Part shown: one piece after another, positions 36,161 to 63,251 of the stretch | Numbering within the stretch: the stretch's first letter is position 1 | How the letters are laid out: each line of letters starts with the position of its first letter | Source of the DNA: Gammaproteobacteria bacterium | GTDB lineage: Bacteria > Pseudomonadota > Gammaproteobacteria > SZUA-152 | Assembly: GCA_021648485.1 (NCBI GenBank) | Contig: JAKISS010000003.1 | Span: forward strand, 3,988 to 67,987 | DNA: 64,000 nt | Direction of reading: 5' to 3' | Program-made: the position numbers and the translations under genes | Notes under the pieces: model-generated | What the model saw: only the letters and a program-made list of their open reading frames with translations | What the model was told of the DNA's origin: nothing | The model's database searches: none

Positions 36161-37315
36161 TTAGCTTGTTGCAGCTTCATTGGCATTGTCTCTGTACATG
36201 CAAATGCCACTGCCATCGCGTTTTGCCGTGTACATAGCTGCATCGGCACGGCCAACCAAGGTATCAGCGTCGGTACCATGGTCTGGATAAAACGCACTGC
36301 CAATGCTTGCGCCAATGCTGATTTTTTCACCATTGCTATCCATGACAACAGGTTCCATGAAGGCGGACATTATTTTTTTCAAAACGATTTCGGGTGATTC
36401 CCGGGCAACGGCTGGCAGAACAAAGGCAAATTCATCACCGCCAAGCCGAGCGACGGTGTCGCTGTCCCGTAAGGTTTTCTGGATGCGGTCTGCCACGGTT
36501 TTGAGTACATAATCCCCGGACAAATGGCCCCGCTGATCATTGATTTCCTTGAATCCATCGAGATCCATCATTGCCACCGCAAATTGGGTTTTGTTGCGCG
36601 TAGCCAGTTTGATGGCTTGTTCCAGCCGGTCATGGAACAGGATACGATTGGGTAAACCGGTGAGCGCATCATGCAGGACTGCACGTTTAAGCTGGCTGTT
36701 GGAGTCAGCCAATTCGGCATTTTTTGCTTCCAGTTCAGCCAATAAGTCCTGGAGTTGAAGGGTGCGTTGTTCTACTTCCTGCTCCAGATTCTGGACATGA
36801 TTTCTGGCTTGCTCACCCAGGTTCCATTTCTTTACCAGGCTTAATGCCATTTGTTGCACAGCGATGGCATCAAACGGTTTACGTAGAAACAGCAGTTTGT
36901 CATTGCTGCCCAGTTTTTCGATAATGTCATCCCAGGTGTAATCGGAATAGGCGGTGCATAATACCATTTCGATGTAGGGGTGCTTTAACCAGATGCGGCT
37001 GATGGTTTCGATGCCATCCCAGCCAGGCGGCATGCGTACATCCATAAAAATCAGTGCATAGGGTCGCCCTTCCTGTGCAGCTTTATCCACCATGGACAGG
37101 GCTTCCTGGCCCTGTAGTGCGGAATCGACGGCATATTGCAGAATATCATCCGGGGCTTTGTTTTTGGGCTTACCTCCATCGTCGCCAAACAGCTCGGCTT
37201 CCAGGTCATCCAGCGCGGCGTGGTCTGCATTCTGTTCATGGACTAAAACTTTATAAAAATCCTCATGGATAGATTCGTTATCATCAACAATTAAAATGCG
37301 TGTGTTGTGTTCCAT
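36161..37315 (-). CDS. Response regulator–diguanylate cyclase (REC + GGDEF)
   Basis: The N-terminal REC (ILIVDDNESIHEDF…) has an insertion. The C-terminal GGDEF domain has an intact RLGGDEF motif. Confidence 0.85.
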   Translation of the reverse strand: MEHNTRILIVDDNESIHEDFYKVLVHEQNADHAALDDLEAELFGDDGGKPKNKAPDDILQYAVDSALQGQEALSMVDKAAQEGRPYALIFMDVRMPPGWDGIETISRIWLKHPYIEMVLCTAYSDYTWDDIIEKLGSNDKLLFLRKPFDAIAVQQMALSLVKKWNLGEQARNHVQNLEQEVEQRTLQLQDLLAELEAKNAELADSNSQLKRAVLHDALTGLPNRILFHDRLEQAIKLATRNKTQFAVAMMDLDGFKEINDQRGHLSGDYVLKTVADRIQKTLRDSDTVARLGGDEFAFVLPAVARESPEIVLKKIMSAFMEPVVMDSNGEKISIGASIGSAFYPDHGTDADTLVGRADAAMYTAKRDGSGICMYRDNANEAATS

Positions 37316-37349
37316 TGTGATCTCCCGAGAGTATTGTGATATGTCTGTT

Positions 37350-39896
37350 TTAAGCGGCTTTTTTTACCGGCAGAATAACGGTAAAACAGGCACCTTTCTG
37401 AATCCCTTTACTATCAACTTTCAAGGCACCTTTCATTTCGGTCATGGCATTGGCACAGGTGTGCAGACCAAAACCGTGCCCGGTTTCTTTTGTGGTAAAA
37501 CCATGGTTGAAAATTTTTGTAAGCTGCTCTTTGTTTATGCCGCAACCATTGTCTTTTATTTTCAGATAGACGGCGGTATCGTTAGCCATGCCGGTTTCAA
37601 TAATCATTTCTTTAGGCCTGTTGAATTGATCATTGTCACTCATGGCTTCTTTGGCATTTTTGATCAGGTTGGTAATCACCTGTAGCAGTTTGGATTTTTG
37701 CCCGATACATGCCGGGGTATTGGCAAATTGCGTATTCAGTTTAATACCCCATTTTTTGAGCGATGCATCCTGAATTTTCAGGGCATCTTCTACCAGCTCA
37801 GGCAGGTTGAGCTGTTCATTATGGAAACCGGATCTGGCATAGGTTTGCTGGGTGCTGATGACTTCTTTCATCATTGTGGTTTTGGCGATCAGTTCTCTGG
37901 ATTCTTTTTGAATGTCACTGATTTCAATATTCAGCACTTTGCCTATCTTGATGAAATATTCGGGCAGTTTTTTGCCACGGGCATCTTGAGTAAGGAATTC
38001 GTCCATGTTGTCAGCATTTTTCAGCAGCATGTCACACGCTTTTAACAGACCGGTAATTTTGCTGCTGTCCGAGATGCGGTGAATCTCTTCACTGGCCAGG
38101 TTGACGCTATTGAGAATGTTGCCAATATTGTGCAGTACGCCCGTGGCCATATCGGCCATACCGGATTTATGTGCCGCATCGACCAGTTGGTTTTGCGCGT
38201 CAGCCAGGGTTTGCTCGGTTTCTTTGCGGGCAGTGATGTCACGCACAATGCAGACACGCATGCGTTTGTGACCAATCTGCATGCCGGATACCACAATTTC
38301 CATCGGGAACGTGTTGCCGTCAGCGCGAAGCCCCAGGCATTCCTTGGGTTGCTGGTTATCACTTTGCTGTTCCGATTCTGCAAATTTGTCAACATCGTAC
38401 CCCTCGGCTAACAATGTACTGTGCAGGCCAATGGCCTCATCGTTTTCCAGCGCAAAAATCGTCATGGCTGCTGGATTCAATGACTCAATAGTGCCGGATT
38501 CATCCAGCACAAGAATGCCTTCGCCGATATTGTCGAGCACGGCGCGAATCTTTATTTCACTTTCTTCAAGGTCCCGGGTGCGTTCATTGACGCGGTTTTC
38601 CAGACCCTGATTCAGAGTTTGCAGTTCACTCAGCATTTGTTGTTCGGTCATGGCAGCCAGACGCAGGTGGTTAACCATGGTGTTGAATGAACGTCCTAAC
38701 TGCCCGATTTCATCATTGCTGGTTACCATTACCTCGGCATTGAGATCACCTTCAGCCACTTGACCGGCAGCGTTCATCAAACGCTGGATTGGTGGTACGA
38801 CACTGCGGGTAAAGCGGAGGGCTAACAATAGGCCAGTGAGCAATGTGAGCGCCATGCCGATAATGGAGGAAATGCGAATTTCATAGAGTGACTGGGTTAA
38901 TTCCTGCGCATTGTCGAATGCTGCGTTGAGCAGCTTGTCAGCAGTACCTTCGAAGAGGGTTTGCAATTGATCTGTGGTGGGTTGTACCCGGGTTCGTAGC
39001 AGGTGAGTGTCAGCCCGCCAGGCACCTGTTTCAAATATTTCCAGTACTGCCGGAAGATTTTCAAGATAAGCAGAATAGATTTCACTCATCTCCTCGGTCT
39101 CACCGAAACCGATGTTGACTTCCAGCCGGTTCAGTTTTTCCATCAGGATGTTGATAACGTCTTTGAAATTATTGAAATTGATCAGGGTTTCTTTGTTTTG
39201 GGACGTGATGTAGAGATTAAGTGCCCCCATCATCCTCACCCAGTTGTAACGCAGCTCCTGTAAAATGGGTACGGCTTGGGCGATATGTGGATCATCGGGG
39301 TTGATATCGTCGCTATTCAACAGCGCATTGATGTTGCCCAGAAAACGGATGGCCAATGGGTTCAGTGTTTCCCCTGCCAGTAGCAGGCCACGATTGTTCA
39401 GGTTGTCGTCGTGCAGCGCGAACAATTCTGTTGCATGTTTCCGGTATTGTTGGAGCAGGGCCTGGGACGTGTGTAACGTGTCATCGAGCCCCAGGTTTTG
39501 GAAAATATCCTGCTGACGAGCACCGTCCAGACGGTCGGCGATATCATCGGCAACCCATTTGAATCCTGCCTTGTGTTCCACATCGCCGGTTAACAAATAG
39601 CTGTTGAGCAAGGCAATGGCTTGATTAAGGCTTTGCGACAGGCGTTGAAAGTAGTTGGCCGCAGGCTGGCGTTCTTCGAGTGCGGAAGCCGCTGTGCGCT
39701 TGACACTATCGAGCTTTAGCAGGGTGATGCCCATGCCCACCGTCATGAGCAGAATCAGACCACCGAAGCCAGCGCTGATCTTCAAACGGACATTCCAGTT
39801 ACGTGGACTAATTTTGTTAATGGCTGGAGGTGATGTGTTTGGGTTGGTCATGCGTTTGGGTTGATGAATGAGATCTGTTGGCTCCAGGTGTTTCAA
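37350..39896 (-). CDS. Membrane sensor histidine kinase with HAMP and PAS domains
   Basis: 848 aa. An N-terminal TM segment and a large periplasmic/linker region. HAMP (…MVNHLRLAAM), PAS (AVLDNIGEGILVLDESGTIESLNPAA), an H-box GVLHNIGNILNSV, and HATPase_c (DNGCGI…GHGFGLH). It is co-oriented upstream of the REC-GGDEF gene. Confidence 0.85.
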   Translation of the reverse strand: MKHLEPTDLIHQPKRMTNPNTSPPAINKISPRNWNVRLKISAGFGGLILLMTVGMGITLLKLDSVKRTAASALEERQPAANYFQRLSQSLNQAIALLNSYLLTGDVEHKAGFKWVADDIADRLDGARQQDIFQNLGLDDTLHTSQALLQQYRKHATELFALHDDNLNNRGLLLAGETLNPLAIRFLGNINALLNSDDINPDDPHIAQAVPILQELRYNWVRMMGALNLYITSQNKETLINFNNFKDVINILMEKLNRLEVNIGFGETEEMSEIYSAYLENLPAVLEIFETGAWRADTHLLRTRVQPTTDQLQTLFEGTADKLLNAAFDNAQELTQSLYEIRISSIIGMALTLLTGLLLALRFTRSVVPPIQRLMNAAGQVAEGDLNAEVMVTSNDEIGQLGRSFNTMVNHLRLAAMTEQQMLSELQTLNQGLENRVNERTRDLEESEIKIRAVLDNIGEGILVLDESGTIESLNPAAMTIFALENDEAIGLHSTLLAEGYDVDKFAESEQQSDNQQPKECLGLRADGNTFPMEIVVSGMQIGHKRMRVCIVRDITARKETEQTLADAQNQLVDAAHKSGMADMATGVLHNIGNILNSVNLASEEIHRISDSSKITGLLKACDMLLKNADNMDEFLTQDARGKKLPEYFIKIGKVLNIEISDIQKESRELIAKTTMMKEVISTQQTYARSGFHNEQLNLPELVEDALKIQDASLKKWGIKLNTQFANTPACIGQKSKLLQVITNLIKNAKEAMSDNDQFNRPKEMIIETGMANDTAVYLKIKDNGCGINKEQLTKIFNHGFTTKETGHGFGLHTCANAMTEMKGALKVDSKGIQKGACFTVILPVKKAA

Positions 39897-41936: not shown

Positions 41937-42060
41937 TACATTCAAGCCAGACTTTGGGAAACAGGAGATAACGTTATGTCGTCAGCCGTACAAGATGTGA
42001 AAGATCTGATCGATCATTTGCCCGATGATACCAGCATTGAGGATATTCAATATCACCTTT

Positions 42061-42528
42061 ATGTGCTGGAAAAGATTCGTCGCGGGCAGAACCTGTTTTT
42101 TCACCGTAAACTTGGCAGAACGGAAACGCATATTATTGATCGATCAGGTAGACGTATTACGTAAGGCGATTAATAAGGTCAAACAAAAATATCCATTTGT
42201 CATTGATGCCGTGGTTGTGCTTTCTGATCATTTACATATGTTGTGGACTTTGCCGCAGGGGGATCATGATTACCCGACACGCTTAATGTTGATTAAGGCA
42301 GACTTTTCTCGATTGATTGAAAAGGGCGAGTATCGTAATGCCAGTCGGCAAGCAAAAGGCGAGCGAGAAATTTGGCAGCGACGATATTGGGAGCACTTGA
42401 TTCGAGATGAACGGAATTACGCCAATCATGTGGATTACATTCATCATAACCCGGTGAAACACGGACATGTGGAGCAGGCGTTAACCTGGCAGTATTCGAG
42501 TGTTCATCGTTACATCCGGGCCGGGTAA
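42061..42528 (+). CDS. REP-associated tyrosine transposase (RAYT, Y1/HuH family)
   Basis: MCWKRFVAGRTCFFTVNL…VVLSDHLHMLWTLPQGD…REIWQRRYWEHLIRDERNYANHVDYIHHNPVKHGHV…WQYSSVHRYIRAG is collinear with E. coli TnpA_REP (YafM), including the HuH motif and the catalytic Tyr. Confidence 0.8.
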   Translation: MCWKRFVAGRTCFFTVNLAERKRILLIDQVDVLRKAINKVKQKYPFVIDAVVVLSDHLHMLWTLPQGDHDYPTRLMLIKADFSRLIEKGEYRNASRQAKGEREIWQRRYWEHLIRDERNYANHVDYIHHNPVKHGHVEQALTWQYSSVHRYIRAG

Positions 42529-42745: not shown

Positions 42746-45034
42746 ATGACAGAAACAACCGAACTAAACTACGAAGGCGTAGAACAACAACCCCTCAGCA
42801 CCTTTACTGAGAACGCCTACCTCAATTACTCCATGTACGTGATCATGGATCGTGCCTTGCCACATATCGGCGATGGTCTGAAGCCCGTGCAGCGACGCAT
42901 CGTCTACGCCATGTCCGAGCTGGGCCTCAAAGCGGGTGCCAAGTACAAAAAATCCGCACGTACTGTGGGTGATGTCTTAGGTAAATTCCATCCTCATGGT
43001 GATTCGGCCTGTTACGAAGCAATGGTCTTGATGGCGCAGCCGTTTTCCTACCGTTATCCACTGGTAGACGGGCAGGGTAACTGGGGTGCGCCGGATGATC
43101 CCAAGTCTTTTGCGGCAATGCGTTATACCGAGTCACGGCTGGCAAAATATTCAGAATTGCTGCTCAGTGAAATTGGCTTGGGTACGGTGGACTGGACACC
43201 GAATTTTGATGCGACACTGGATGAACCTTCAGTGTTGCCGGCGCGGGTACCGAATTTGTTGTTGAACGGTACCACTGGCATTGCCGTGGGTATGGCCACG
43301 GATATCCCGCCACACAATCTACGTGAGGTAGTGAACGCCTGTGTGCATTTGCTGGATACACCGAAGGCAACACTGGCAGATATTTGCGAGTATGTGCAGG
43401 GGCCGGATTACCCCACCGATGCGGAGATCATTACACCACGTAATGAGTTGGTCGCTATGTATGAGAAGGGCGGCGGCTCGGTGCGTATGCGTGCGGTATG
43501 GGAAAAGGAAGACAATGCAGTGGTGGTGACAGCACTGCCGCATCAGGTGTCCGGTAATAAAGTGCTGGAGCAAATTGCTGCGCAAATGAATGCGAAGAAG
43601 TTACCCATGGTGGAAGATTTACGTGATGAATCCGATCATGAAAACCCCACTCGTCTGGTGATTGTGCCGCGCTCCAATCGCATCGATTTGAATGAGTTGA
43701 TGGCGCATCTTTTTGCAACGACAGATCTCGAAAGAACCTATCGTGTAAATATGAACATCATTGGCCTTGATGGCAGGCCGCAGGTGAAAGATCTGCGCAC
43801 TTTGCTCAAGGAATGGCTGATGTTCCGTACCGACACGGTGCGCCGACGGTTGGAATATCGTCTGGAAAAAGTGAAGCGCCGGTTGCATTTACTGGATGGG
43901 TTGCTGATTGCGTTTCTCAATCTTGATGAAGTGATTCACATTGTTCGCACCGAGGATGAACCCAAATCGGTATTGATGAAACGCTTCAAGCTCACTGACG
44001 AGCAGGCGGATTATATTCTTGACACCAAGCTGCGTCAGTTGGCACGTCTGGAAGAAATGAAAATCCGTGCCGAGCAGGAAGAGCTGGCAGCAGAGCGTGA
44101 CAAACTGGAAAAAACGCTGGGTTCAAAAGCGCGCTTGAAAACGCTGATACGTAAGGAGTTGATTGCTGATGCGGAAGAATATGGTGACGAGCGACGCTCT
44201 CCCATTGTCGAGCGTGGTGCAGCTCAAGCGCTGGATGAAACTGCATTGATCAGTGCTGAGCCGGTCACGGTTGTATTGTCGGAGAAGGGCTGGATTAGAG
44301 CAGCCAAAGGCCATGATGTAGATGCTGCGGGCCTTAATTACAAAGCCAGTGATGATTTTAAAGCGGCGGCTTGTGGCCGCAGTAATCAGCAAGTGGTGTT
44401 TTTGGATGCCAGTGGGCGTTCGTATTCCATTGCTGCACATACGTTGCCATCAGCGCGTGGGCAGGGTGAACCGCTCACGGGGCGTGTGACTCCGCCCGAT
44501 GCCGCCAGTTTTGTTGATGTACTTGCGGGTAAAGGCAGTGATTTGTATTTGCTGGCCAGTGATGCGGGGTATGGTTTTGTGACCCGGCTGGAAAATATGT
44601 ATGCCAAAAATAAATCAGGCAAGGCTTTGCTGAAATTGCCCAAGGGTGCGCGAGTGCTGCGGGCCTGTGCTGTCAGTGATGTTGTCAGTGACCGCATTGT
44701 AGCGGTAACCACTGAGGGACGCATGCTGGTTATTTCATTGCAAGAGTTACCGGAAATGGCCAGAGGTAAAGGCAATAAGATTATCGGCATTCCCCCTGCG
44801 CGAGTGGCGAATCGCGAAGAGTATGTGGTTGGCGTTGCCGTTGTTTCTGTGGGTGACAGCTTGACAATTTATTCGGGAAAACGTCATTTGACCCTTAAAC
44901 CCAGGGATATAGAGCACTATGAGGGTGAGCGTGGCCGCCGTGGCTCCAAGCTGCCGCGTGGTTTTCAGCGAGTGGACAATATTTCTGCCAGTGGTTCAGT
45001 AAATGCCGCAACCGGGGTGGTTGAAAAAGAGTAA
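42746..45034 (+). CDS. parC: DNA topoisomerase IV subunit A
   Basis: [25 protein letters not shown]…, the active-site Tyr region (AAMRYTE), and 762 aa. Confidence 0.95.
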
Positions 45035-46887
45035 TGCCGATTGATTTGCTGCAATGGTGGGATCGCTTGCCTTATGTGGGCACAAAGAGCGAAGTGATTG
45101 CGCCGCGTGTTATTCCACTAAAGCTGGATGTGCCGATATTGCGTGTGCGTAACCGGCGCAAGCAGGAAAAATTGCAGCCCCCTCCCGATAGCTGGAAAGA
45201 CCTGAACAAGTATCCAACGGAATTGCTGCGCAAAATCGATGGTTATTTACAGCGTGTTAATACAGAGAAAATGCGTAATAGCAAACGTATGGCCTGGGTT
45301 GAGCATGCCTTGCAGTATGCCTGCCCGGCCATACGAAAAATTTATTCTGAGTACTACAAATCCGAAGCATTGCCGGAATCGCATGACAGACGTGAAGGAT
45401 TGATGGCAGCAATTAATGTGTGCAGCCAATTGGCGGTGGGTTATAAACGTCAACTGAATGAAGATTTTGCCTTGCCCGATGCCCGCTATGCCCGAGTGCG
45501 TCCCCGGGTGCGCCATCATGCTGTGCGTATTTTGGAATTACTGCGCATGGAGCAACGTTTACGTGCCATGCGTTATCAAAAATTATCAGAAAAGAGCTGG
45601 CAGGATTGTCACCAGATATTTTTTGCCCTTTCCCAGTGCGAAGACATTGATGAAAAACGGTTGTCGTTAAATTGCTTGCAGGTGTTGCTGGACAGTTCAG
45701 CCAATGAAAGTACACGCCGGATGCCGATAATGACATCATTAAACCTGGTTTATCTTTCTATCCAGTTTAATGGTTTGTTTAACATTAGCGCCTTGTTATG
45801 CCAAAAACTACATGTGGTGGATGCACAAATTGCCAATGTTATCGGCTCGATTACCATTATTCCCGATCATGGTAAAAAGCTGGGGCGCGGTAAGTTGTTG
45901 ATTTACCATGGGCAGGATTGTCCGCCGTATTTTAAACGTCAGGATGAAATACAGCGGAAAAAACAGCTTGCATGGTTGAAAGCCCGTGGTGAATTTTGCA
46001 CGGGTGAGGCACTTTCATCGGAATATAAACTGAGGGCTGTTATCGTTGATGTCTCGCCGCTGGATGCAATGTTGATGAAAGAACATCAGCGATTGCTGGC
46101 GCGATTTGAGTCACAGGATTTCATTGAGGGCGTGAAAGAAAAAGGGGCAAAAAATAAATATAATAGCGTTGTTGATCAGGATGACCTGGCCAATTTGTTG
46201 ACCATAGATGCCATGTGTGATGGTTTGCAATTGAAACAGCGTAAGGAGGAAAGAGAATATATTCTTGGCCGGAAAATATTGTATGTGTACAACGGGTTTA
46301 TGTCAGTTTACAAATTGCTGGTGGATATGGCGACAGAAAAAAACAACGAAAACTCCAGCCTGGCAAGTGATAATGATTTACGTGATGCATTGGCAGGTCG
46401 TTCGGCATTGATTGCTGCGGATTTGCAGGATAATGAGTTTGGTCAGTGGTTTGTGGTCGATAAAAGTGAGGGCGGGGTTCACATTAAAACACGAGACAGT
46501 GAATTTACTACCGCCTTGTTTATTGGCCAGGTTGTGGCATTTGCTTATTCACGTGAAGCACTTGCCAGACCGGCGCTGGGTTATGTGGTGCGCCTGCGTC
46601 GTAATATCAGTAAAGAAATCGAAGTGACTATTCGTATTTTATCAAAAACCGTTGTTGCTACCACTGTGCAAAATGATTTTTTAACTCAAAATGATATGGC
46701 TTTGCCTGCTATCGTGCTTGAGCGTGATGACATGACCAGGAGACGTTTAATGTTACACCATAGCCATCGATTGTCATCGGGTACCCTGGTAAAGATTGAA
46801 CTGGATCAGCAACAAACGGAAATTATTTCCGAGATGCTGAAAATTCAGCGGGAGTTTGTGGTTTATTCGCTGCTGGAAAAATCGTAA
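45034..46887 (+). CDS. Large conserved hypothetical protein (paralog P1 of 49030..50889)
   Basis: 617 aa. The start ATG overlaps the parC stop (TAATG), implying translational coupling. It shares blocks with the 619 aa protein (…A[VI]GYK…; …HRA[IV]R[IY]L…L…Y…H…W…H…). It may belong to the DUF1631-type family that neighbours fimX in Pseudomonas; that attribution is from recollection and is unverified. Confidence 0.6.
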   Translation: MPIDLLQWWDRLPYVGTKSEVIAPRVIPLKLDVPILRVRNRRKQEKLQPPPDSWKDLNKYPTELLRKIDGYLQRVNTEKMRNSKRMAWVEHALQYACPAIRKIYSEYYKSEALPESHDRREGLMAAINVCSQLAVGYKRQLNEDFALPDARYARVRPRVRHHAVRILELLRMEQRLRAMRYQKLSEKSWQDCHQIFFALSQCEDIDEKRLSLNCLQVLLDSSANESTRRMPIMTSLNLVYLSIQFNGLFNISALLCQKLHVVDAQIANVIGSITIIPDHGKKLGRGKLLIYHGQDCPPYFKRQDEIQRKKQLAWLKARGEFCTGEALSSEYKLRAVIVDVSPLDAMLMKEHQRLLARFESQDFIEGVKEKGAKNKYNSVVDQDDLANLLTIDAMCDGLQLKQRKEEREYILGRKILYVYNGFMSVYKLLVDMATEKNNENSSLASDNDLRDALAGRSALIAADLQDNEFGQWFVVDKSEGGVHIKTRDSEFTTALFIGQVVAFAYSREALARPALGYVVRLRRNISKEIEVTIRILSKTVVATTVQNDFLTQNDMALPAIVLERDDMTRRRLMLHHSHRLSSGTLVKIELDQQQTEIISEMLKIQREFVVYSLLEKS

Positions 46888-48944
46888 TCCAGAGATGTTT
46901 CCGGTTGTTGTAAATAGAATCCCTGAATAAAGTTGACGCCATGCTGCCATAATACGGCCAGACAGGCAGGGTCTTGTACATGTTCAGCAATGGTTAATAT
47001 ATTGTGAGCACGGCCAGCTTCGGCAACCAGTTGAATGATGCGTTGGCTTTCTTCACTGGCTGCATTGTTGATGTGGCTGCCATCAATTTTCAGGTATTTC
47101 AGTTTCAGGTGTTTCAGATAGGTAAGGTCGTCTGATTCTTTGCCTGCGTGGTCGAGCGCCATATTGCAATGCAGTTGTGTGAGTCCATCGGAGAAGACTT
47201 TGGCAGCTTTGATGTTTTCCAGGGCCGTCTGTTCACTGATTTCAAACACCAGACTGTCGCCGTGTAAGCGCGCAGCCTGCAATAATTTGCTGATCCACAC
47301 CAGCAGACTTGGGTCGCGTAAAGATTCAGCAGATATTTTGATAAAAAACTGGATTTCTTTGCCCACTTTGCGTTTGTCCAGAATGGCCTTGGCGGCACTT
47401 TTGATCACCCACTTATCAATTTCTTTCATAAGTCCAGCCTGCTCGGCAGCCTCAAGAAAATCGCCCGGCATGATGAGGGTGTTGTCCTGGTCTTGTAAAC
47501 GCAACAAAACTTCGTAACGCTCTCCCGGCTCAGCATGCAGGCTGACGATAGGCTGATAGTGTAATACGAAGCGATTGTTTTTGAGAGCAAGTTCCAGCAA
47601 TGTAGAAATGCGTTTGTCGGCTTCCAGGCTGGCAAGGGCATCTTCTTCGGAAAATATATGTACCTGGTTGCCGCCTTTTTCCTTGGCGCTATTGCAAGCC
47701 ATTTCTGTTTGAGAAACTGCTTTTTTTGCATCGGTGGTGGTTTCGGCAATAGTTGAGATGCCAATGCTAAAGGTTGTGGTGACGGCTTTTTCTTCTACTT
47801 CAAATATTTTTTCAGCCAGTCCCCTGCACAATTTTTCAGCTAGTTTTTCAGCCAGTTTTTGTTGTTGGCCGGAAAGGATGACGGAAAAAATAGTGCCGGC
47901 ATACCGGGCGATGTGGACGTTGTCTTCAGGAAGGATTTCCTGAATATATTGCGCAATGTCAGACAGCACCAGATCACTTTCGGCGATGCCAAGCGTGTCT
48001 TTGATATTCTTGAAATTGTCCGGCTCGATATACAGAAGCGCGAATTTTTCTTCATTTTTATTGGCCTGATTGACCGCATCCTGTACTTTTCCCATGAAAT
48101 ACTGGTTGTTGTACAGCCCGGTTAACAAATCCTGCTGGCGAAGTTGTTTAATCTCTTTTTCGAGTGCTTTGTCGTTGCTTTTGCGGTGAATCATTACCTG
48201 GGTGCAGGCTTCACCATCAATGCTGGCGCGTGAAAACTCCATGGTGGCGGCAAAGACTTCTCCATCTTCACGCACGGCCTGATATTCGAGCGTACCTTCC
48301 GGTGGCTGGTCATTGTTGATGCCGCGTAATACGTCTTTGAAACTCTGTTGTTCATCCGGGGTGATAAGGTCCATGATGGGAATACTTTCTAGGTCTTCAA
48401 TATCCTCATAGCCGAAAATATCCTGATAGCTTTGGTTGGCATAGATGTGCATGCCTTCATGGATGTAAGCAATGGGATCGCGAGAGCTGTCGATCAACAC
48501 GCGGTTACGTTTTTCACTTTCGTGATAGAGGCTTTTGCAACGGCGGTGTTCACGACGTTCATGGAGATTGTTGATTTCTCTTTCTATGGCCAGCAGGAGA
48601 TGCTCTTGTGCTTCGTTGGAAACAACATTGCTAGCACCGGCTTTCAGCAGCTTAATTGTGGTGGCATTGTCAGGTTCGCTGCCAAAAACAATGCCGGGAA
48701 TATCATTACCACTTTTTTTGATGATGGAAAGTGCCTGAATGGCCGGGAAGGGACCCGATTGCTGGGCAGCAAGCAGTAAGTCCCAGGTTTGGTTTTCCAG
48801 GGCTTCTTGCAGGTCTTCTGCATCTTCGATGTATTTGTGACGAATGGCGTAACCCGCATTTCTTAATGTGCTAACCAGTGCTTCTGCTTCGTTGGCAGAT
48901 TCTTCCAGAATGAGGGGGCGGATGACATTTCCAGCAGTATCCAA
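46863..48944 (-). CDS. FimX-like c-di-GMP-binding protein (REC-like–PAS–degenerate GGDEF–EAL)
   Basis: 693 aa. An N-terminal REC-like fold lacks the canonical acidic pocket. A PAS region follows. In the GGDEF domain the motif is replaced by ARYAGTIF (compare GDSIF in FimX). The EAL domain carries EVLLR, the EVL variant characteristic of FimX. Confidence 0.8.
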   Translation of the reverse strand: MDTAGNVIRPLILEESANEAEALVSTLRNAGYAIRHKYIEDAEDLQEALENQTWDLLLAAQQSGPFPAIQALSIIKKSGNDIPGIVFGSEPDNATTIKLLKAGASNVVSNEAQEHLLLAIEREINNLHERREHRRCKSLYHESEKRNRVLIDSSRDPIAYIHEGMHIYANQSYQDIFGYEDIEDLESIPIMDLITPDEQQSFKDVLRGINNDQPPEGTLEYQAVREDGEVFAATMEFSRASIDGEACTQVMIHRKSNDKALEKEIKQLRQQDLLTGLYNNQYFMGKVQDAVNQANKNEEKFALLYIEPDNFKNIKDTLGIAESDLVLSDIAQYIQEILPEDNVHIARYAGTIFSVILSGQQQKLAEKLAEKLCRGLAEKIFEVEEKAVTTTFSIGISTIAETTTDAKKAVSQTEMACNSAKEKGGNQVHIFSEEDALASLEADKRISTLLELALKNNRFVLHYQPIVSLHAEPGERYEVLLRLQDQDNTLIMPGDFLEAAEQAGLMKEIDKWVIKSAAKAILDKRKVGKEIQFFIKISAESLRDPSLLVWISKLLQAARLHGDSLVFEISEQTALENIKAAKVFSDGLTQLHCNMALDHAGKESDDLTYLKHLKLKYLKIDGSHINNAASEESQRIIQLVAEAGRAHNILTIAEHVQDPACLAVLWQHGVNFIQGFYLQQPETSLDYDFSSSE

Positions 48945-49029
48945 AAGTGGCTCCTAAAATTGTTAGTATTGGGGCGACAGAATTAACCTGAGGTGTTTTG
49001 AATCAGGTTATTTTTTAAAGAAAAGGTTG

Positions 49030-50889
49030 TTAAATCAGTGTCCATACGGCATCGAATTCGTCATCTGTCTCAGCATCGGCCGATGGTTTTGTTTTTTTCT
49101 GCACATTTTCAAGTACGGTAAATTCAAACTGAGAGAATACACCAGTGGATTCCAGTTGTTTAGTGAGTTTGATGCGTGTGCGACGTCCGTGGACGTTGGC
49201 AATCAGTTGGTCATCGGTTTGGTGCCAAGCATGTGTGATCAGTGTGGCAGGTTGGTCAATGCTGGACAATCGGGGTAATACCAAACTGCGCTGATATTTT
49301 TCCGCAGTGTCATCTTTGGTAATGGCAGAAAGCGCAATAGCATCAGCGCAGGGTGCCAGTTTCTGGATGCCAAGCTCAAGCCCGTTTTTCCAGTTTTTTA
49401 TGCGGCGGATAATGCCAATGCTGAGTTGTGTGCCGCTTGCGGCAATATTATCGCGGATACCCACCAGTTCGCCGACCTGGACTTTTTGTGAATCTTTTCC
49501 ATAAACCAGATAACCTAGCAGGCAGTAACCACCGGCACTTTCGTTGACGCCTTTGCAGGGCAACGGAGTGTGTGCGTATAAAGCGCTTTTGTCCTGAGTT
49601 TCGTCACCACGGGTTTCTGAAGTATGCTCGGGGTTGTTCGCCCGGTAGGTGAAATCCGGATCCCAGATATCCGGTGTATGGTCATCCAGATTGCTGATAC
49701 CAAACACGGGGCTGCTGGTGTAGTGGGCAGGTTCATCCAGCACAAAGTCCTCATCATCGTCCGTTGTTGAAACAAGGTTGCCCGTCTGTAGGGCATCTGT
49801 CGCTGTGGGGCAACTTGCTGTTGGGTCTTTCAACAGAGGGCGAATGACTTCATCGATGTAATGATGGGTTGCGCTCAGACCGAGAGTGATGGCAATTTCG
49901 TTGCTTTTTGAGGTGCGGGGGAAAGTACGGTGCGATTTTCCGCTCCAGGTGACGATCAGGCGTTTTTGTACATCGGGTGGAATTTTTGGGGCAGCATCAC
50001 CACCGGAGAGCATGGAGTTACTCATGGCCTGCACCAGTTCGCTGGTATCCACGGTACGACAGAATGCGGGGTTGACGGTGCCATCGTCACGGAAATAACC
50101 GGGAGCGGCATCGCTGTTCATATTGATGTTAAAGGCGTAGCTGTCATCCAGGATTTCGCCGTAAGGGTGGATGTGGGCATTGGCTCCCCAGGTTTCCAGT
50201 GTCCGATACACAGCCTCAGTGACATGTTGGCGCAAGCGGTAGGGGCCGACCAGGGCCAGCAGGAGGATTTGTTTGTAAATGTCAGCGATATTACTGTCCA
50301 ACACGGTCTCGGGGGCAACATGATCCTTGATCAACGTGACGTGCAACTGGCGGTTCTCTGCATACAAATAAAGACGATGCACTTGCAGCCAGACATTTTC
50401 CGGGTGCTGGATATAAATCTGATACGAGCACAGCAGCACATTACTGAGATAACGAATGGCACGATGCAGGCAAATGCCCAGGGTTTTGTTGTTCAGGCGT
50501 GAAAAAGTCTTGCTAAGTTTGCTTTGAATAATGGCCTTATAGCCAATGGCCATTTCCGAGTTCAGTTGAATAGCCAGCTCGGCAATTTTTTGATTTTTGG
50601 GAGAAAGAGGCAGATTTTGATTAATGTAGTGTGTTTTTAACACCTCTGTAATCTGGTAAACCGGTTCGCGCAGAAGCTCCATGGATTTATAACGGTCATG
50701 TGCAGACATGCTCAGGCGATTCATCTCACACAGTGTTGTATAAATAAGGCGTGCGCTTTCGCCGATGTTGGCCATCGGTAGCGAAGTGACCCAGGCCTCA
50801 ACCTGTTTTGGACGAGGGTCGAACGAACCCGAAGTGGGTTTGTTTTGTTCCGGGATGTTCAGTAATCCTTCAGACATGCTGTTCGCCAC
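49030..50889 (-). CDS. Large conserved hypothetical protein (paralog P2 of 45034..46887)
   Basis: 619 aa, co-oriented directly upstream of the fimX-like gene. The sequence blocks shared with P1 are listed under that feature. Confidence 0.6.
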   Translation of the reverse strand: MANSMSEGLLNIPEQNKPTSGSFDPRPKQVEAWVTSLPMANIGESARLIYTTLCEMNRLSMSAHDRYKSMELLREPVYQITEVLKTHYINQNLPLSPKNQKIAELAIQLNSEMAIGYKAIIQSKLSKTFSRLNNKTLGICLHRAIRYLSNVLLCSYQIYIQHPENVWLQVHRLYLYAENRQLHVTLIKDHVAPETVLDSNIADIYKQILLLALVGPYRLRQHVTEAVYRTLETWGANAHIHPYGEILDDSYAFNINMNSDAAPGYFRDDGTVNPAFCRTVDTSELVQAMSNSMLSGGDAAPKIPPDVQKRLIVTWSGKSHRTFPRTSKSNEIAITLGLSATHHYIDEVIRPLLKDPTASCPTATDALQTGNLVSTTDDDEDFVLDEPAHYTSSPVFGISNLDDHTPDIWDPDFTYRANNPEHTSETRGDETQDKSALYAHTPLPCKGVNESAGGYCLLGYLVYGKDSQKVQVGELVGIRDNIAASGTQLSIGIIRRIKNWKNGLELGIQKLAPCADAIALSAITKDDTAEKYQRSLVLPRLSSIDQPATLITHAWHQTDDQLIANVHGRRTRIKLTKQLESTGVFSQFEFTVLENVQKKTKPSADAETDDEFDAVWTLI

Positions 50890-51177: not shown

Positions 51178-52212
51178 TTAAGGGTTGATGGGCGTTTTGT
51201 GGGCTTTTCCGGCGATTTCACGCACCAGCTGCGGCACCAGAAATCCGGGTAACCGTTGGCGAATTTCATTCATCAGTGATATGGCCATGGTTTCGGGTAC
51301 GTCAAAATGTCCCGCACCCTGCACGCGATCCAGAAGGTGCAAATAGTAGGGCAACACGCCGCTGGCAAACAGAGATTCATTGAGTTCGCACTGTGCATTG
51401 ACGCTGTCGTTCACGTCTTTCAGCAATACAGCCTGGTTGAGCAGGGTAACGCCGATGCGGTGCAGCTTGTTGAGCGCGTGTTGTACGTCATTGCCCAGTT
51501 CATTGGCATGATTGCAATGGGTAACCAGCACAATCTGCCAGGGTAAATCAGACAGCCAGCGTAAAAAATGGTCATTAATGCGTTCAGGTAATACGATGGG
51601 CATGCGGGTGTGGATGCGTAGCCGTCGCAGGTGGGGAATGTGACGCAGGGCATTGCTGATTCCGCTCAGCCGTTCTGTACTGAGCGATAGCGGGTCGCCG
51701 CCACTGAGAATGACTTCGGTGATTTCCGGGCGGGCTGCGATGTACTTGGCTGCTGCTGTCCACTGATGATCACCAGGCCGGTTTTTTGTGTAGGGAAAGT
51801 GTTGTCGAAAACAGTAGCGGCAGTGAACAGGGCAGGTGCCTGTGGTGATTAACAGCACCCGACCGTGGTATTTATGCAGCAGGCCAGGAAGAGCTGTCGC
51901 AACGGCATCACCCACCGGATCGAGCAGAAAATCAGGCTGTATGGCCGACTCCAGTTGACGTGGTAATACTTGCAGCAGCAGAGGGTCTGCGGGGTCTCCC
52001 GTGCGGATGCGTGCCACGTAATTACGTGGCACACGCAGCGGGAAAGTTTGTTGTAGGCTGATGCCCCCGGGAATGTCATCGGCACTGAGTCCTACCGCAG
52101 CCAGTAACTCAAGGGGGTCTTTAATGGCGCGGGCCAGTTCTCTTTGCCAAAGGCTGTTTTCTGCGGATTCGCTGTCATCTGACTGACAAAGGCTGGCAGT
52201 AAGCGGTATCAT
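51178..52212 (-). CDS. epmB: EF-P beta-lysylation protein EpmB (lysine 2,3-aminomutase paralog, radical SAM)
   Basis: [11 protein letters not shown] radical-SAM cluster motif. The KamA-family layout. It is divergent from efp, as in E. coli yjeK-efp. Confidence 0.85.
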
Positions 52213-53872: not shown

Positions 53873-54265
53873 TTTTGGTATGCGCGTTTGATTTGACACT
53901 GTTTAGTAACATAAAGTTGTCGAAATTTTTTACATCTTTCAGTGCGTCGCCGGGTAGGTAATTATAGTTTGATATGTTAACCTCATGATTTTACAGAGTG
54001 TTTTCTGGTCTTTTGATGCTTGGCTTGTAAATTGCAATGTAATGGAGCATTAACAGGCTGGAGATAGTCCCGTTTTTGTCAGGCAGTAAGGAAGACGACG
54101 TTCATTTTGACAGTGGAAAATGGATGGTGATCTGCATCTGTGAGTGTGGGTTGTCGGGTATATTCAGATACCGGATAGTTAAGTATTCCCGAGAAGTTTT
54201 CGGTGGTTGGAACAGTAGTGGAACTGATGGTATCTTACAGCCTCCAATGGAGGGGAGAGACGAAC

Positions 54266-54625
54266 ATGGAAAAACGCTGGAGCGAAAGAAAATTATTGCA
54301 GGTTGATGTTGATGTGTATCAGCAGGGCGAGTTGTTAGGCTCCTGCGTTTCAGCGGACATTGGCCTTGGAGGTGCATTTCTTACTCGGGAATGTACGTTT
54401 GCCATGCCTTATGAGGCAGGTGTCGAGCTGGTTTTCAGTCTGGCTTTCGAAGATCAAAACACCAAGCACAAAATCAACGCCCGCGTGGCTCGGGTTTCCG
54501 ATATGGGTGTTGGTTTGAAATTTTGTGATTTTGATACGGGTGTTTTTCGCTCTTTGCAGGAAATTATGCTGTATAAGAAAAACACGCCAGTGGAAAACAT
54601 CATCAGCCAAACGGGCACTCACTGA
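54266..54625 (+). CDS. PilZ-domain c-di-GMP receptor protein
   Basis: RWSER (RxxxR) followed by SADIGLGGAF ((D/N)xSxxG-like DIGLGG), about 120 aa. GGAGG lies upstream of this ATG. Confidence 0.65.
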   Translation: MEKRWSERKLLQVDVDVYQQGELLGSCVSADIGLGGAFLTRECTFAMPYEAGVELVFSLAFEDQNTKHKINARVARVSDMGVGLKFCDFDTGVFRSLQEIMLYKKNTPVENIISQTGTH

Positions 54626-54639
54626 CACCTGTCATTTTA

Positions 54640-54710
54640 GTGCTGCCCCATTAACAGCGTCGCGTGTCTCGCGACATTGTTAATGGGGCAGCACCGTTGC
54701 TTTTTATTTT
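54640..54710 (+). terminator. Long near-perfect palindrome (25-bp arms, 2 mismatches) plus T-tract; rho-independent terminator of the PilZ gene
   Basis: GTGCTGCCCCATTAACAGCGTCGCG-tgtct-CGCGACATTGTTAATGGGGCAGCAC followed by CGTTGCTTTTTATTTT. Confidence 0.55.
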
Positions 54711-57148: not shown

Positions 57149-58219
57149 ATGACCACCGGTGTGCTCATTACCAACCTTGGCACTCCTGATGCCCCTACTG
57201 CTCCTGCATTACGACGTTATCTGGCTGAATTTCTATGGGATCCGCGCATCGTTGACAGTCTGCCGCGACCTGTCTGGTGGCTGGCTTTGCATGGGCTGAT
57301 TCTGCGTTTGCGGCCTGCTCGCTCGGCAAAGTCGTACGCCAGTGTGTGGACAGATGAAGGTTCCCCGTTACTGGTTATTGCGGAGCGTCAACTCGCTGCC
57401 TTGCGTGAGTCGCTGGCGCAGCGGCTGCCTGGTCCGGTTGTGGTGGAACTGGGTATGCGTTACGGCAATCCGTCGCTCGCCTCGGCGATGCAAAAACTAC
57501 GGGATGCCGGTGCGCGTCGTGTGTTGGTGCTGCCGTTGTATCCGCAGTATTCCTGTAGCACTACGGCTTCCACCTTTGACGCGATTGCCGCAGAAATGGC
57601 CGGTTGGCGCTGGATGCCGGAGCTGCGGTTTATTAATCAGTATCATGATGAAACCGGTTATATCGAAGCACTGGCGGCGAGTATTCGGGAATCCTGGGCG
57701 CAGCGCGAACAACCACAGAAATTACTGTTTTCTTTTCACGGCACCCCTAAACGCTTTTTCACCGAGGGTGACCCTTATTACTGCCACTGCCAAAAAACCG
57801 CACGTTTGGTGGCCGAGCGTTTGGGGTTGGCGGAGGATCGCTGGCAGCTGACTTTTCAGTCCATTTTTGGTCGTGAGGAATGGTTGCAGCCCTACACCAT
57901 CGAAATTTTACGTGAGCTGGGTAGCAGCGGTGTGAAATCCGTGGACATTGTCTGTCCCGGGTTTTCAGCAGATTGTCTGGAGACGCTGGAAGAGATCACG
58001 GTGGAAAACAAGGATGCGTATCTCGCAGCAGGTGGAGAGCAGTTTCACTACATTTCTGCGCTTAATGACAGACCGGATCACATGGCGGCATTGTCGGGAC
58101 TGGTGCAAAAACACTTGGCGGGTTGGCCGGAAGCATCACCGGACTGGAATGCCGTGCAGCATGAAAGCGGGAATGCTGAACGCTTGATGCGGGCGAAGGT
58201 GGTAGGGGCTGATATTTAA
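57149..58219 (+). CDS. hemH: Ferrochelatase
   Basis: MTTGVLITNLGTPDAPTAPALRRYLAEFLWDPRIVD parallels E. coli HemH. It has the LPLYPQYS motif and the conserved His/Glu region. The start was chosen at MTTG. Confidence 0.85.
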   Translation: MTTGVLITNLGTPDAPTAPALRRYLAEFLWDPRIVDSLPRPVWWLALHGLILRLRPARSAKSYASVWTDEGSPLLVIAERQLAALRESLAQRLPGPVVVELGMRYGNPSLASAMQKLRDAGARRVLVLPLYPQYSCSTTASTFDAIAAEMAGWRWMPELRFINQYHDETGYIEALAASIRESWAQREQPQKLLFSFHGTPKRFFTEGDPYYCHCQKTARLVAERLGLAEDRWQLTFQSIFGREEWLQPYTIEILRELGSSGVKSVDIVCPGFSADCLETLEEITVENKDAYLAAGGEQFHYISALNDRPDHMAALSGLVQKHLAGWPEASPDWNAVQHESGNAERLMRAKVVGADI

Positions 58220-58239
58220 GTTTACTCATTTTCCTCGAT

Positions 58240-58980
58240 GCCATAAGCCACACCCAGCCGACAGATCAGTTTGGCCATGTAGCGCCGGGCTTAGTCTTCC
58301 AGTATTTCATTGGCACTCACTGGTTGTATTCACGCTGAATTCGCAGTGAGTCTTTGTTAATATCCATCGGGGTTTCTGTTTATCCCCCTGTGTCAGGATA
58401 GTTGTCAGAAGCCTTGATAATGTATTAGTGTATCGCTATGTTATGATTGCCTGGGTAAGCTGGCACTAATTTAGTGCGCACGCCATCGGTAGTGAAAGCG
58501 TCTTCCACAGGTTGAGGTCAGAGGTTATATGGTTCAACCCAGGCCGCAACTTCACTTTTAAGCATTTCCTGATCCGCAATGTGCCTACCCAGACATTGCT
58601 CTACGTCCAGTTTCCATTCAGTATTTTTTAGTCCGCCAGGTTTCTTTCTAGAACTGGGTTCAATCCTTGTGTTACAGCCCGTTTACGTATGCGTTCAACG
58701 GTTCAGATCCTAATGCCAAACACTTCACCGGTCTGTTCATCTTTCCAATTTTCACCTTCATATTTATCCGCTTTGAGCAAAATTTGGGTATACAATCGTT
58801 TATGAGATGCTACTTTTCGCTTTTTTACAATGTCGTGCAGTTTTGTTCGTTTGGTTTCAGTCAGCTTTATTTTGTATTTTTTGGCCGTGGTGTCATTCTG
58901 TTTCCTGTGAATAGGGGAAAGGTGTATTCTACCCAGAAATTATGGCATGGCAATGTGCGAGTGGCCCGAGCACTTTGATA
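58240..58980 (-). pseudogene. Decayed IS630/Tc1-like transposase remnant (frameshifted N-terminal HTH fragment plus disconnected C-terminal fragments)
   Basis: On the minus strand AGGAAACAGAATG opens a short frame (MTPRPKNTK*). A +1 frame continues with KYKIKLTETKRTKLHDIVKKRKVASHKRLYTQILLKADKYEGENWKDEQTGEVFGI. The RL.T.ILL.A(D/E) pattern followed by (D/E)EQ.. matches the paired-type HTH of IS630 transposases. Further short fragments lie downstream (…RHIADQEMLKSEVAAWVEPYNL*). No intact ORF is present. Confidence 0.45.
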
Positions 58981-59048
58981 ATTATTTTATGCTCATGAAC
59001 TTTTGCTTGAACAGCATTGCTCTTTTTTTAATAAAATATTGGAGTTAA

Positions 59049-59753: not shown

Positions 59754-59936
59754 TATGGGGCGACAATTGTTCCTTAAAAACTTTTGATTGGTGTATATTT
59801 GGAATAGTTTCGACAATTTATACAGCTAATAGTGTTGTTTGTCTGTTTTAAAAACAGACAAACGGGTTAAAGTATAACCTTATGGGAAGCTTATCAATTG
59901 AATTTTTATTTGGTAATAATCGCGCATAGATAAGCA

Positions 59937-61712: not shown

Positions 61713-62147
61713 TATGGTTTAGTGTTTGTACAAATATCGGCATCCGGTTGAAAATATCTTTGCGCGCCTTAAGTGTTTCCGGTCAATTGCGATGAGATAT
61801 GACAAATTAAAACGAAATGATCAGCGCATGTCGGCACTCGCTTACAACTTTTTTTGGTTACCAATGTGAAGCGTCAACTGACTGACCCTTAGTAATTTTC
61901 CACTCTCACCTAAATTCACAAACTATGTCGAAATTTTATACAATTTTCTGCCAATTATATATTAGGAAAACTATATAATTTATGCATTTCAATGACATAT
62001 ATTTACTGGCATGAAAAGTGCGTATTGTTGTCTTGCAGACAGATTTCACCATTATGTGTAAAAGAATTCGACATTACCTGCCTGCAATTAAAGTTTTTAA
62101 TTACTAAAGTTAGCGATAATAATTTCAGGAAATATATAGCAACAAGT

Positions 62148-62885: not shown

Positions 62886-63251
62886 TGGACTATCAGTTAT
62901 TATAATTAGATCCTATTCTAAATGGGATGCTTTATACCTTGAGGGAAGATCGGTAATCACACGCATGATGAGCACTCTAGTTAGGAGTGGTTAGTGAATC
63001 TCTCAAAGAGAGATGTGATAAATCAACCAAGACTGACCACGATGCTGGGGTTTTGATTATAAGAAAATTCACTAAAATAGTTGGTATAGGAGGCTCTTGT
63101 GTATACAAGAGGATGTTGGTTTTGCGAATAATGGACCTGTATAATAATTGAAAAAATACAAATTTCGGTCTTGGGGTATTACCACAAATTTGTGATTTTA
63201 CTGGTATTATAAACACAAATTTTTTTATACTAAAAAAATCAGGATAGCAAA

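Follow-up and report, generated by a model that had tools for sequence, protein, structure and literature searches.

A 64,000-nucleotide stretch of gammaproteobacterial DNA (hereafter the window) carries a gene for a FimX-like protein between two genes for large proteins, P1 and P2, and the start codon of P1 overlaps the stop codon of parC. What are the two flanking proteins, and does their arrangement tie c-di-GMP and pilus signalling to topoisomerase IV? The reading that we favour, at a probability of about 0.8, is that the locus represents a fimW-fimX operon for c-di-GMP receptors promoting type IV pilus assembly, to which a lineage-specific, highly diverged FimW paralog, P1, has been added between fimX and parC. 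This is a known system with a lineage-specific variant. The main value of our analysis lies in a correction: both proteins, first described as of unknown function, appear to be FimW-family members, and the locus a conserved fimW-fimX pilus-regulation module.

The layout described in an earlier note on this DNA was confirmed. The three reading frames encode P1 (617 aa; 45034-46887, plus strand), the fimX ortholog (693 aa; 46863-48944, minus strand) and P2 (619 aa; 49030-50889, minus strand). P1 and fimX are convergent, with 3' ends overlapping by 25 nt, and P2 precedes fimX on the same strand with an 85-nt spacer. Directly upstream of P1 lies parC, encoding topoisomerase IV subunit A (42746-45034, plus strand), and the parC stop and P1 start share the sequence TAATG (45032-45036, plus strand, reading GAG-TAATG-CCG). 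A scan for promoters and terminators found no more of them than in shuffled sequences, an Rfam search of the 36-57 kb part of the window returned neither a c-di-GMP riboswitch nor any other RNA family, and no type IV pilus machinery genes were seen among the window ORFs scanned.

P2 and P1 as members of the FimW family

Judging from Pfam family names, gene order and the literature, P2 is most likely part of a fimW-fimX locus and orthologous to the characterised FimW (PA4958). Its homologs, 35-96% identical, carry the domains PF27104 (FimW_N) and PF27125 (FimW_C); the Pfam version that we scanned predates both families, and the domains were read from precomputed matches on the homologs. Both are present on P0001, a protein 96% identical to P2, and on 119 others, and two homologs bear the JGI label 'cyclic-di-GMP-binding protein'. 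The literature describes FimW, which is encoded with fimX, as a c-di-GMP effector in type IV pilus assembly (PMC11656802, PMC10212136); in P. aeruginosa it is PA4958 (PMC11656802). Like it, P2 lies upstream of fimX, has close homologs with FimW_N and FimW_C, and contains RxxxR and [D/N]xSxxG motifs; identity of P2 to the distant family members sampled is about 35% or lower. The AF2 model of P2 comprises helices (residues 27-237), a disordered segment (370-440) and a beta-rich region (443-592).

The gene order is widespread. The P2 gene directly precedes fimX on the same strand in 50 or more loci and in Acinetobacter, and the pair with epmB upstream extends from uncultured sulfur-oxidiser-like Gammaproteobacteria through to Acinetobacter. 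The large hypothetical protein that, according to the earlier note, adjoins fimX in Pseudomonas belongs to the same gene family as P2. The note had also thought a duplicated pair unusual, but extra or orphan FimW-family copies are common in a superfamily of 4282 cluster representatives at 50% identity. A scan of genome contigs gave matches only in MAGs of sulfur-oxidiser-like lineages, and a homolog search seeded with the Acinetobacter FimW-like protein returned almost only Acinetobacter. A tblastn search against plasmids hit only mislabelled Acinetobacter chromosomes, and a cluster look-up of 10 distant representatives yielded no names. Public records label the Acinetobacter FimW homologs 'GTPase', which looks wrong.

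P1 is, by profile comparison, a very distant full-length paralog of P2, with which it shares about 15% identity. Pairwise BLASTP gave E 0.011 over 39 aa, and profile-profile comparison of the N-terminal ~250 aa gave 80% probability and E 1.4e-5. Full-length profiles built from widened alignments matched at 98.3% and E 2.6e-14 over 517 columns (P1 27-614, P2 6-591), against E 0.16 for a column-reversed control. The C-termini alone aligned weakly (hhalign E 0.001, probability 20%), and only full-length profiles with intermediates resolved this part; C-terminal homology of P1 was also visible against the Acinetobacter FimW-like protein. The family HMMs of P1 and P2 produced reciprocal, colinear matches, and the proteins at the P1 position in two loci, L033 and L034, scored with both models (328-334 bits and 41-42 bits). 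Thus profile comparison bears out the proposed paralogy, with a common N-terminal region and strongly diverged C-termini, and the two proteins do not fall into unrelated families. Of the conserved blocks said to link them, AVGYK/AIGYK lies within the BLASTP match, but the pairing of HHAVRIL with HRAIRYL did not stand, as the profile alignment sets LRAMRY against HRAIRY.

The homologs of P1 (39-94% identical) form a family of 97 clusters. PF27104 occurs on 96 of them, including P0121 at 94% identity, the exception being a C-terminal fragment (P0161); PF27125 occurs on none of the 97. The AF2 model of P1 (pLDDT 79.5, pTM 0.81) repeats the helix-then-barrel order of P2. P1 hence resembles FimW in the FimW_N domain of its homologs, in overall domain order and in its motif pair, and differs in having no FimW_C match, in a shorter, helical insertion between the motifs, and in its place, after parC and convergent with fimX, whereas fimW lies upstream of fimX. 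GC content (0.448) and GC3 (0.46) of P1 are slightly under those of its neighbours and remain within the range of the window, so they make no case for recent transfer.

Split PilZ motifs and the probable role of P1

An RxxxR motif and a [D/N]xSxxG turn define c-di-GMP binding in PilZ domains. P2 contains both, as R321-T-F-P-R325 (49915-49929, minus strand), with both arginines unchanged across the family (70/70 members), and as N449-E-S-A-G-G454 (49528-49545, minus strand), in which N, S and the final G likewise never vary (70/70). The counterparts in P1 are R403-K-E-E-R407 (46240-46254, plus strand; 64/65 family members), which hhalign places onto R321/R325, and D476-K-S-E-G-G481 (46459-46476, plus strand; D/N in 64/65, S in 60/65 and G in 61/65 members), which aligns onto N449-S451-G454 of P2 and onto DISVNG of the Acinetobacter FimW-like protein. 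The motif pairs of P1 and P2 thus align column for column. In P2 the second motif stands ~120 aa downstream of the first because a disordered insertion splits the pair. AF2 models of both proteins place an insertion after the first barrel strand, ~50 aa and helical in P1 versus ~100 aa and disordered in P2. For specialists in c-di-GMP and type IV pili, this splitting of the PilZ motif pair by a long insertion is a trait of FimW-type proteins worth knowing, as it explains why standard PilZ models miss them.

Indeed, Pfam PilZ (PF07238) matched neither P1 nor P2 of the window above threshold. Weak PilZ matches were found in 0/70 members of the P2 family, and in the P1 family PilZ was the most frequent weak match (4/65 members, best E 0.014). 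Foldseek against the PDB ranked the YcgR-like PilZ proteins VCA0042 and PP4397 highest for the P1 model (probability 0.82-0.90, E ~0.06); for the two models together nothing reached E <= 0.001, and the suggestive PilZ matches ranged from E 0.06 to 0.45. Two-barrel receptors of the YcgR/PlzD type (VCA0042, PP4397, MotI) were the best, non-significant structural matches to the C-terminal halves of P1 and P2. They have the same motif pair, spaced by 20-30 aa as opposed to 70-125 aa, and are without the large N-terminal helical domain; unlike on them, the Pfam PilZ model remains sub-threshold on P1 and P2. When the C-terminal sub-alignments of P1 and P2 were compared by hhalign with the small PilZ proteins of the same loci, no signal emerged (E 0.2-0.26). 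Neither family profile matched a sequence in the PDB, and scanning P1 and P2 against NCBIfam and a Pfam version older than FimW_N and FimW_C turned up nothing relevant. DUF1631 (PF07793), which the earlier note had wished to see tested, was matched by neither the window proteins nor 135 family members at E up to 10. The PilZ-like barrel suspected at the C-terminus of P2 gains support from the invariant motifs (RxxxR/NxSxxG, 70/70) and from the beta-rich region of the model, with fold matches that are weak; based on these models, the PilZ assignment of both C-termini is not statistically secure.

By analogy with the P. aeruginosa literature, rising c-di-GMP would be bound by FimW, which would dimerise and move to the pole, and by FimX through its EVL-type EAL domain, which would engage PilB; both proteins would stimulate pilus extension. 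P1, whose motifs make it most likely a c-di-GMP receptor, would be a third one built on the same plan of domains; since its helical domain and C-terminus have diverged, it would differ in partner, affinity or expression pattern. In the closest clade P1 is probably co-transcribed with parE-parC, to go by the spacing (-1 to +15 nt), and would then be made constitutively; fimW-fimX, unlike P1, has its own upstream region. One uncultured lineage of Gammaproteobacteria would keep a second, very diverged FimW-like receptor, always after parC.

As P1 homologs give no FimW_C match, P1 could have lost or altered its ligand binding even though the motifs are kept. An alternative to which we assign little probability casts P1 as a duplicate that is in decay or has been neo-functionalised; it would have ceased to bind c-di-GMP and would act only through its FimW_N helical domain, for instance as a competitor or scaffold for partners of FimW. 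The missing FimW_C and the poor alignment of the isolated C-termini (E 0.001, probability 20%) fit such a duplicate, as do motif losses among distant members of the P1 family: P0217 has Q/D/F/N/M at five key positions and three members have N/A in the second motif. Yet across 39-94% identity the family preserves RxxxR in 64/65 and the complete [D/N]xSxxG in about 58/65 members, which points to selection acting on the binding site; moreover, an intact gene is conserved across 97 clusters, and AF2 models its C-terminal barrel with confidence (pLDDT 80-90). Similarly improbable, in our estimate, is that P1 represents a FimW-like clade of its own, whose c-di-GMP receptors are co-expressed with topoisomerase IV and pair with canonical FimW, for example as a c-di-GMP-dependent heterodimer through the common FimW_N. 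If so, polar pilus assembly would receive a constitutive, cell-cycle-linked input beside the surface-induced one of fimW-fimX.

The neighbourhood of parC

To return to P1 as a lineage-specific FimW paralog, its position next to parC is well conserved. In 20/20 loci with both genes, P1 immediately follows parC on the same strand (19 loci, the window among them, and L084, which L085 repeats). Across the loci compared, ParC is 60-95% identical, and the ortholog in L084 has the Pfam domain DNA_topoisoIV. The TAATG overlap, however, occurs in this genome alone. Close relatives read AAATAGTAATG (a TAG stop, a 2-nt spacer and ATG), and the spacer, -1 nt in the window, is +2, +5, +13, +15 or 61-311 nt in relatives. 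The 1-nt overlap arises because GAG has replaced the TAG stop, so that parC continues by one codon and ends at TAA; judged from these sequences, the overlap is a local accident, produced by a single altered stop codon. The longest spacers, 61-311 nt, belong to relatives 46-50% identical and leave room for a separate promoter.

These findings bear on the proposal that P1 is hard-wired to topoisomerase IV, which is reduced to conserved adjacency and orientation, and on the supposed link to chromosome segregation, to which an overlap unique to this genome, with TAG plus 2 nt or gaps of 5-311 nt in relatives, lends no support. The survey of synteny placed P2 next to fimX in 50 or more loci; P1 is absent from 7 loci containing both fimX and parC. 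The blocks of fimX and of parC/parE are neighbours even without P1, and an HtpX-like protease gene takes its position in L022. That a c-di-GMP-responsive P1 is translationally coupled to ParC, and so ties pilus and cell-pole signalling to chromosome decatenation and segregation, is therefore very improbable: the arrangement in 20/20 loci and the spacers of -1 to +15 nt in nearer relatives speak for it, but the single-codon origin of the overlap, the 61-311 nt spacers with space for a P1 promoter, the 7 loci without P1, and the M48 peptidase gene that separates P1 from fimX in L084 speak against it. FimW proteins are, besides, the only recognisable relatives of P1, and Pfam, PDB profile, Foldseek and family scans found no DNA- or topoisomerase-related domain in it.

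FimX and the flanking c-di-GMP genes

The 693-aa protein is, from its domains and motifs, a FimX ortholog with degenerate GGDEF and EAL sites. Pfam detected EAL (450-681, 1.8e-56), GGDEF (271-427, 2.1e-29) and PAS (146-238, 2e-7), preceded by a sub-threshold REC match (11-117, 2.4e-4), which is the order expected for FimX and which agrees with P. aeruginosa FimX (PA4959) and Xanthomonas FimX. The best PDB sequence match was P. aeruginosa FimX (4j40, E 1.7e-83, 284 bits), the leading matches being 4j40, 3hv8 and 7lkq, and the best non-FimX match was PA0861 (198 bits). The GGDEF motif reads AGTIF (47886-47900, minus strand; translation verified), within ARYAGTIF where P. aeruginosa FimX has ARFGDSIF. 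The first G and the D of GDSIF are lost, so GTP binding, as reported for GDSIF, may not apply here. EVL replaces EAL (47505-47513, minus strand) in a segment, YEVLLRL, identical in P. aeruginosa FimX. Pfam and these motif checks confirm the hallmarks listed in the earlier note, including ARYAGTIF and EVLLR, and the EAL motif, which an ordinary phosphodiesterase would have intact, reads EVL.

In 49 fimW-adjacent FimX orthologs the EAL site is EVL or EIL in nearly all and AVL or CVL in a few, and none of the variants tabulated is an intact EAL. Their GGDEF-site variants (motif survey, n=49) include AGTIF, AGTVF, GDHTF and EGPVF. Positions that we take, from general knowledge of EAL domains, to be catalytic or metal-binding are substituted in nearly all 49 (K for N, DHAG for DDFG, EHVQ for EGVE). 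We consider it highly improbable that the protein is an ordinary, active GGDEF-EAL phosphodiesterase and no receptor: the full-length Pfam matches, the retained EAL-motif glutamate, ExxE, KxD and QG, and the weak hydrolytic activity reported for P. aeruginosa FimX itself (PMC11656802) would allow it, but it has EVL, the three substitutions and AGTIF, and is far nearer to FimX than to any active PDB enzyme (284 vs 198 bits). A tblastn search with FimX against plasmids found no FimX ortholog.

Upstream of fimW, an epmB-like radical-SAM gene (51178-52212, minus strand) is a conserved neighbour, and the order epmA-efp-epmB-fimW-fimX recurs in ~50 loci and in Acinetobacter baumannii. A small single-domain PilZ protein (54266-54625, plus strand, in an ORF at 54203-54625; Pfam PilZ 5.4e-8, motifs RWSER and DIGLGG) has its gene flanked by psd and epmA in many loci, and it drew no match when its sequence was searched against the PDB. 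The canonical PilZ gene that had been placed about 3 kb downstream thus exists, but it lies upstream of P2-fimX, on the opposite strand and 3.3 kb away from the 5' end of P2. The conserved block can be written psd-pilZ-epmA-efp-epmB-fimW-fimX…parC-parE; on its parE side it is bordered by a histidine kinase and a REC-GGDEF diguanylate cyclase (36161-39896, minus strand; assigned by Pfam). The same pair adjoins parE in L084 and L085. With its intact RLGGDEF and RxxD motifs, the cyclase makes this conserved flank a possible source of the c-di-GMP signal.

The fimW-fimX module

In the ORF list the locus is a tightly packed foursome consisting of parC (42746-45034, + strand), the gene for the 617-aa protein P1 (45034-46887, +), the gene for a 693-aa GGDEF-EAL protein (46863-48944, -), and the gene for the 619-aa protein P2 (49030-50889, -). 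The earlier note had described this arrangement accurately, including the TAATG overlap, in which the stop codon of parC has one base in common with the start codon of P1 (GAG TAATG CCG). P1 and the GGDEF-EAL gene are convergent, and their 3' ends overlap by 25 nt (46863-46887). Among the loci gathered around homologs (L numbers), the same overlap occurs in the closest relatives L001, L002, L007, and L031; because it is absent from L003 to L005, it is not a conserved feature. An 85-nt spacer separates the end of P2 from the start of the GGDEF-EAL gene, which is preceded by an AGGAG site. An Rfam scan over 36-57 kb of the window returned no riboswitch or other RNA family, and promoter and terminator matches were no more numerous than in shuffled controls.

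The 693-aa protein is FimX, as had been proposed. Pfam recognized EAL (1.8e-56), GGDEF (2.1e-29), and PAS domains, with a receiver domain below threshold. Its closest relatives of solved structure are FimX proteins, the GGDEF-EAL structure of Pseudomonas aeruginosa FimX (4j40) being the best match (E 1.7e-83, 284 bits) and the top non-FimX protein reaching 198 bits. In the alignment to 4j40, ARYAGTIF lies opposite ARFGDSIF, and YEVLLRL is identical. Of 49 fimX orthologs adjoining P2 homologs, almost all have EVL or EIL as their EAL motif, and nearly all carry K for N, DHAG for DDFG, and EHVQ for EGVE, at positions that in EAL enzymes generally serve metal binding and catalysis. Read directly against the CheY-type pattern, the receiver (WDLLLAA) is without the acceptor aspartate. 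P. aeruginosa FimX, as described in a review, likewise has a degenerate motif, GDSIF, and its EAL domain binds c-di-GMP, which is required for contact with PilB (PMC11656802).

P2, described earlier as a protein of unknown function, is FimW. Scans with local copies of Pfam and NCBIfam found nothing for P1 or P2. Precomputed Pfam assignments in a large protein database place both PF27125 and PF27104 on 116 of 120 listed P2 homologs (35-96% identity), and each of the four remaining ones is a fragment with one of the two. A look-up through the contigs named these families FimW_C and FimW_N, respectively, and truncated homologs show that FimW_N is the N-terminal and FimW_C the C-terminal domain. 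Two homologs are named "cyclic-di-GMP-binding protein" by JGI. The FimW family is large, since an exhaustive profile search (E <= 0.001) yielded 4282 cluster representatives at 50% identity. One source lists FimW (PA4958) beside FimX (PA4959) as a c-di-GMP effector (PMC10335732), and another describes it as "encoded with" FimX (PMC11656802). On binding c-di-GMP the protein dimerizes, relocates to the poles, and promotes the assembly of pili (PMC10212136). FimW is counted among the PilZ-domain proteins in a 2025 review (PMC12564702), and its phenotypes differ from report to report (PMC12288467; bioRxiv 10.64898/2026.09.03.749161).

Across 79 loci surrounding homologs of P2, the gene order epmA-efp-epmB-P2-fimX persists to P2 identities as low as 28-30%, its most distant carriers being Sedimenticola, Thiohalophilus, and a Solemya symbiont. 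Acinetobacter baumannii has efp, epmB, a FimW-like gene, and an EAL protein in the same order. The locus is the known fimW-fimX module. Fifteen loci, of which 13 belong to Thiodiazotropha or clam symbionts, have a FimW-like gene without an adjoining fimX; such extra copies are common, contrary to the earlier view that a duplicated pair is unusual.

Orphan genes of this kind (L058, L059, L062, L064-L068, L071, and L073-L079) are 28-31% identical to P2. Thiodiazotropha and symbionts of lucinid clams account for most of them, while L064 and L071 are unclassified Gammaproteobacteria and Chromatiales MAGs. The L067 copy sits in an unrelated neighborhood (recJ, batD, dsbA, GST, a Sel1 protein, and an SLT transglycosylase), and MAG BWSM_42 carries two copies, one linked to fimX (L036) and one orphan (L064). 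The Acinetobacter homologs, such as that of A. baumannii (L080, 7995-9743; NZ_CP077849.1, a chromosome of 3.66 Mb that PLSDB files among plasmids), carry FimW_N, FimW_C, and the motifs RRHER and DISVNG. NCBI and UniRef label them "GTPase" or "putative GTPase-translation elongation factor", apparently an annotation error that has spread between records.

P1, a diverged FimW-like protein

Sequence comparison shows P1 to be a genuine paralog of P2 over its full length, though a very distant one. BLASTP aligned only 39 residues (E 0.011), and the family HMMs gave reciprocal, colinear matches at the N-terminus, middle, and C-terminus. Comparison of the family alignments by hhalign gave a probability of 80% (E 1.4e-5) for the N-terminal ~250 residues. 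When the alignments were widened with three intermediates that occupy the corresponding genomic site (L027, L033, and L034) and more diverse FimW members, it reached 98.3% (E 2.6e-14, 517 columns), against E 0.16 for a column-reversed control, bearing out the paralogy suspected earlier. L033 and L034 score with both HMMs. P1 homologs form 97 clusters, 96 of which have FimW_N only; the exception is a C-terminal fragment.

The motif pair RxxxR and [D/N]xSxxG defines c-di-GMP binding in PilZ domains. In P2, R321-x-x-x-R325 and N449-x-S-x-x-G454 are invariant in 70/70 sequences; in P1, R403-x-x-x-R407 is present in 64 of 65 family members, and D476-x-S-x-x-G481 is complete in about 58. Profile alignment superimposes the two pairs column for column, and the P1 HMM aligns the P1 motif onto DISVNG of the Acinetobacter FimW-like protein, which also has RRHER. 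What is new is a lineage-restricted, strongly diverged, probable FimW-like receptor with its c-di-GMP motifs retained.

In the AlphaFold2 models of P1 (pLDDT 79.5, pTM 0.81) and P2 (pLDDT 73), the N-terminal domain is entirely helical and is followed by a mixed middle part, an insertion that is helical or poorly ordered, and a C-terminus rich in beta structure. The insertion comes after the first strand and sets the motifs 70-125 residues apart, in contrast to the usual 20-30, which is probably the reason that the PilZ model does not detect them. Foldseek matched the P1 model best to VCA0042/PlzD and PP4397 (probability 0.82-0.90, E about 0.06), and the P2 matches include BcsA and MotI (E 0.1-0.45). 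Pfam PilZ was the commonest sub-threshold match among P1 members (4/65), and profile comparison of the C-termini with the small PilZ family of the same loci gave no signal. These results support a PilZ fold weakly, in P1 as in P2, whose C-terminus had earlier been noted as loosely PilZ-like. Ligand binding, partners, and operon structure we infer.

P1 and parC

Wherever a locus has both genes, P1 comes after parC in the same orientation; these loci number 19 including the window, plus L084 (L085 repeats L084 and is not counted separately). The spacing is not conserved: it is -1 nt here, +2 nt in six relatives at 70-94% identity, which read …AAATAGTAATG… or similar, +5, +13, and +15 nt in others, and 61-311 nt in relatives at 23-50% identity. 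The parC stop of the nearest relatives is TAG, which is GAG in the window, so that parC runs one codon longer and reaches the TAA that overlaps the ATG. The overlap is incidental, and the hard-wired coupling envisaged earlier is not supported. In seven loci fimX and parC lie within a few kb without P1, one having an HtpX-like protease in its place, and in L084 an M48 peptidase gene stands between P1 and fimX; P1 thus fills a variable gap between two conserved blocks. In the nearer clade P1 and parC probably share a transcript. Nothing found here ties the function of P1 to topoisomerase IV.

Other features of the window

Directly upstream of parE lie a HAMP-PAS histidine kinase (37350-39896, -; Pfam) and a REC-GGDEF response regulator (36161-37315, -) with RLGGDEF intact and an RxxD I-site. 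Both genes also lie next to parE in L084 and L085, so they may be a local c-di-GMP source for the neighboring receptors. Between parE and parC, an IS200/Y1-transposase-like ORF (42025-42528, +; Pfam Y1_Tnp 8.7e-7) is possibly a REP-associated tyrosine transposase; L002, L003, and L014 have it in the same place (63-89% identity), as would be expected of a domesticated copy more than of a mobile one.

A small single-domain PilZ protein (54266-54625, +) has RxxxR as RWSER and DIGLGG in place of the expected DxSxxG (S to G); a PDB search found no sequence relative, and many related loci keep the gene in its place between psd and epmA. The palindromic hairpin directly after it (54639-54695) is likely a bidirectional terminator or REP element; its match to mir-8338, which occurs on both strands, is spurious (33 bits, where the threshold is 80 bits). 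Two stretches of low GC content, 24001-26000 (0.376) and 58001-64000 (about 0.40), are possible islands, the window as a whole having 0.484, and a PMT_2 glycosyltransferase-like ORF lies at 59937-61712.
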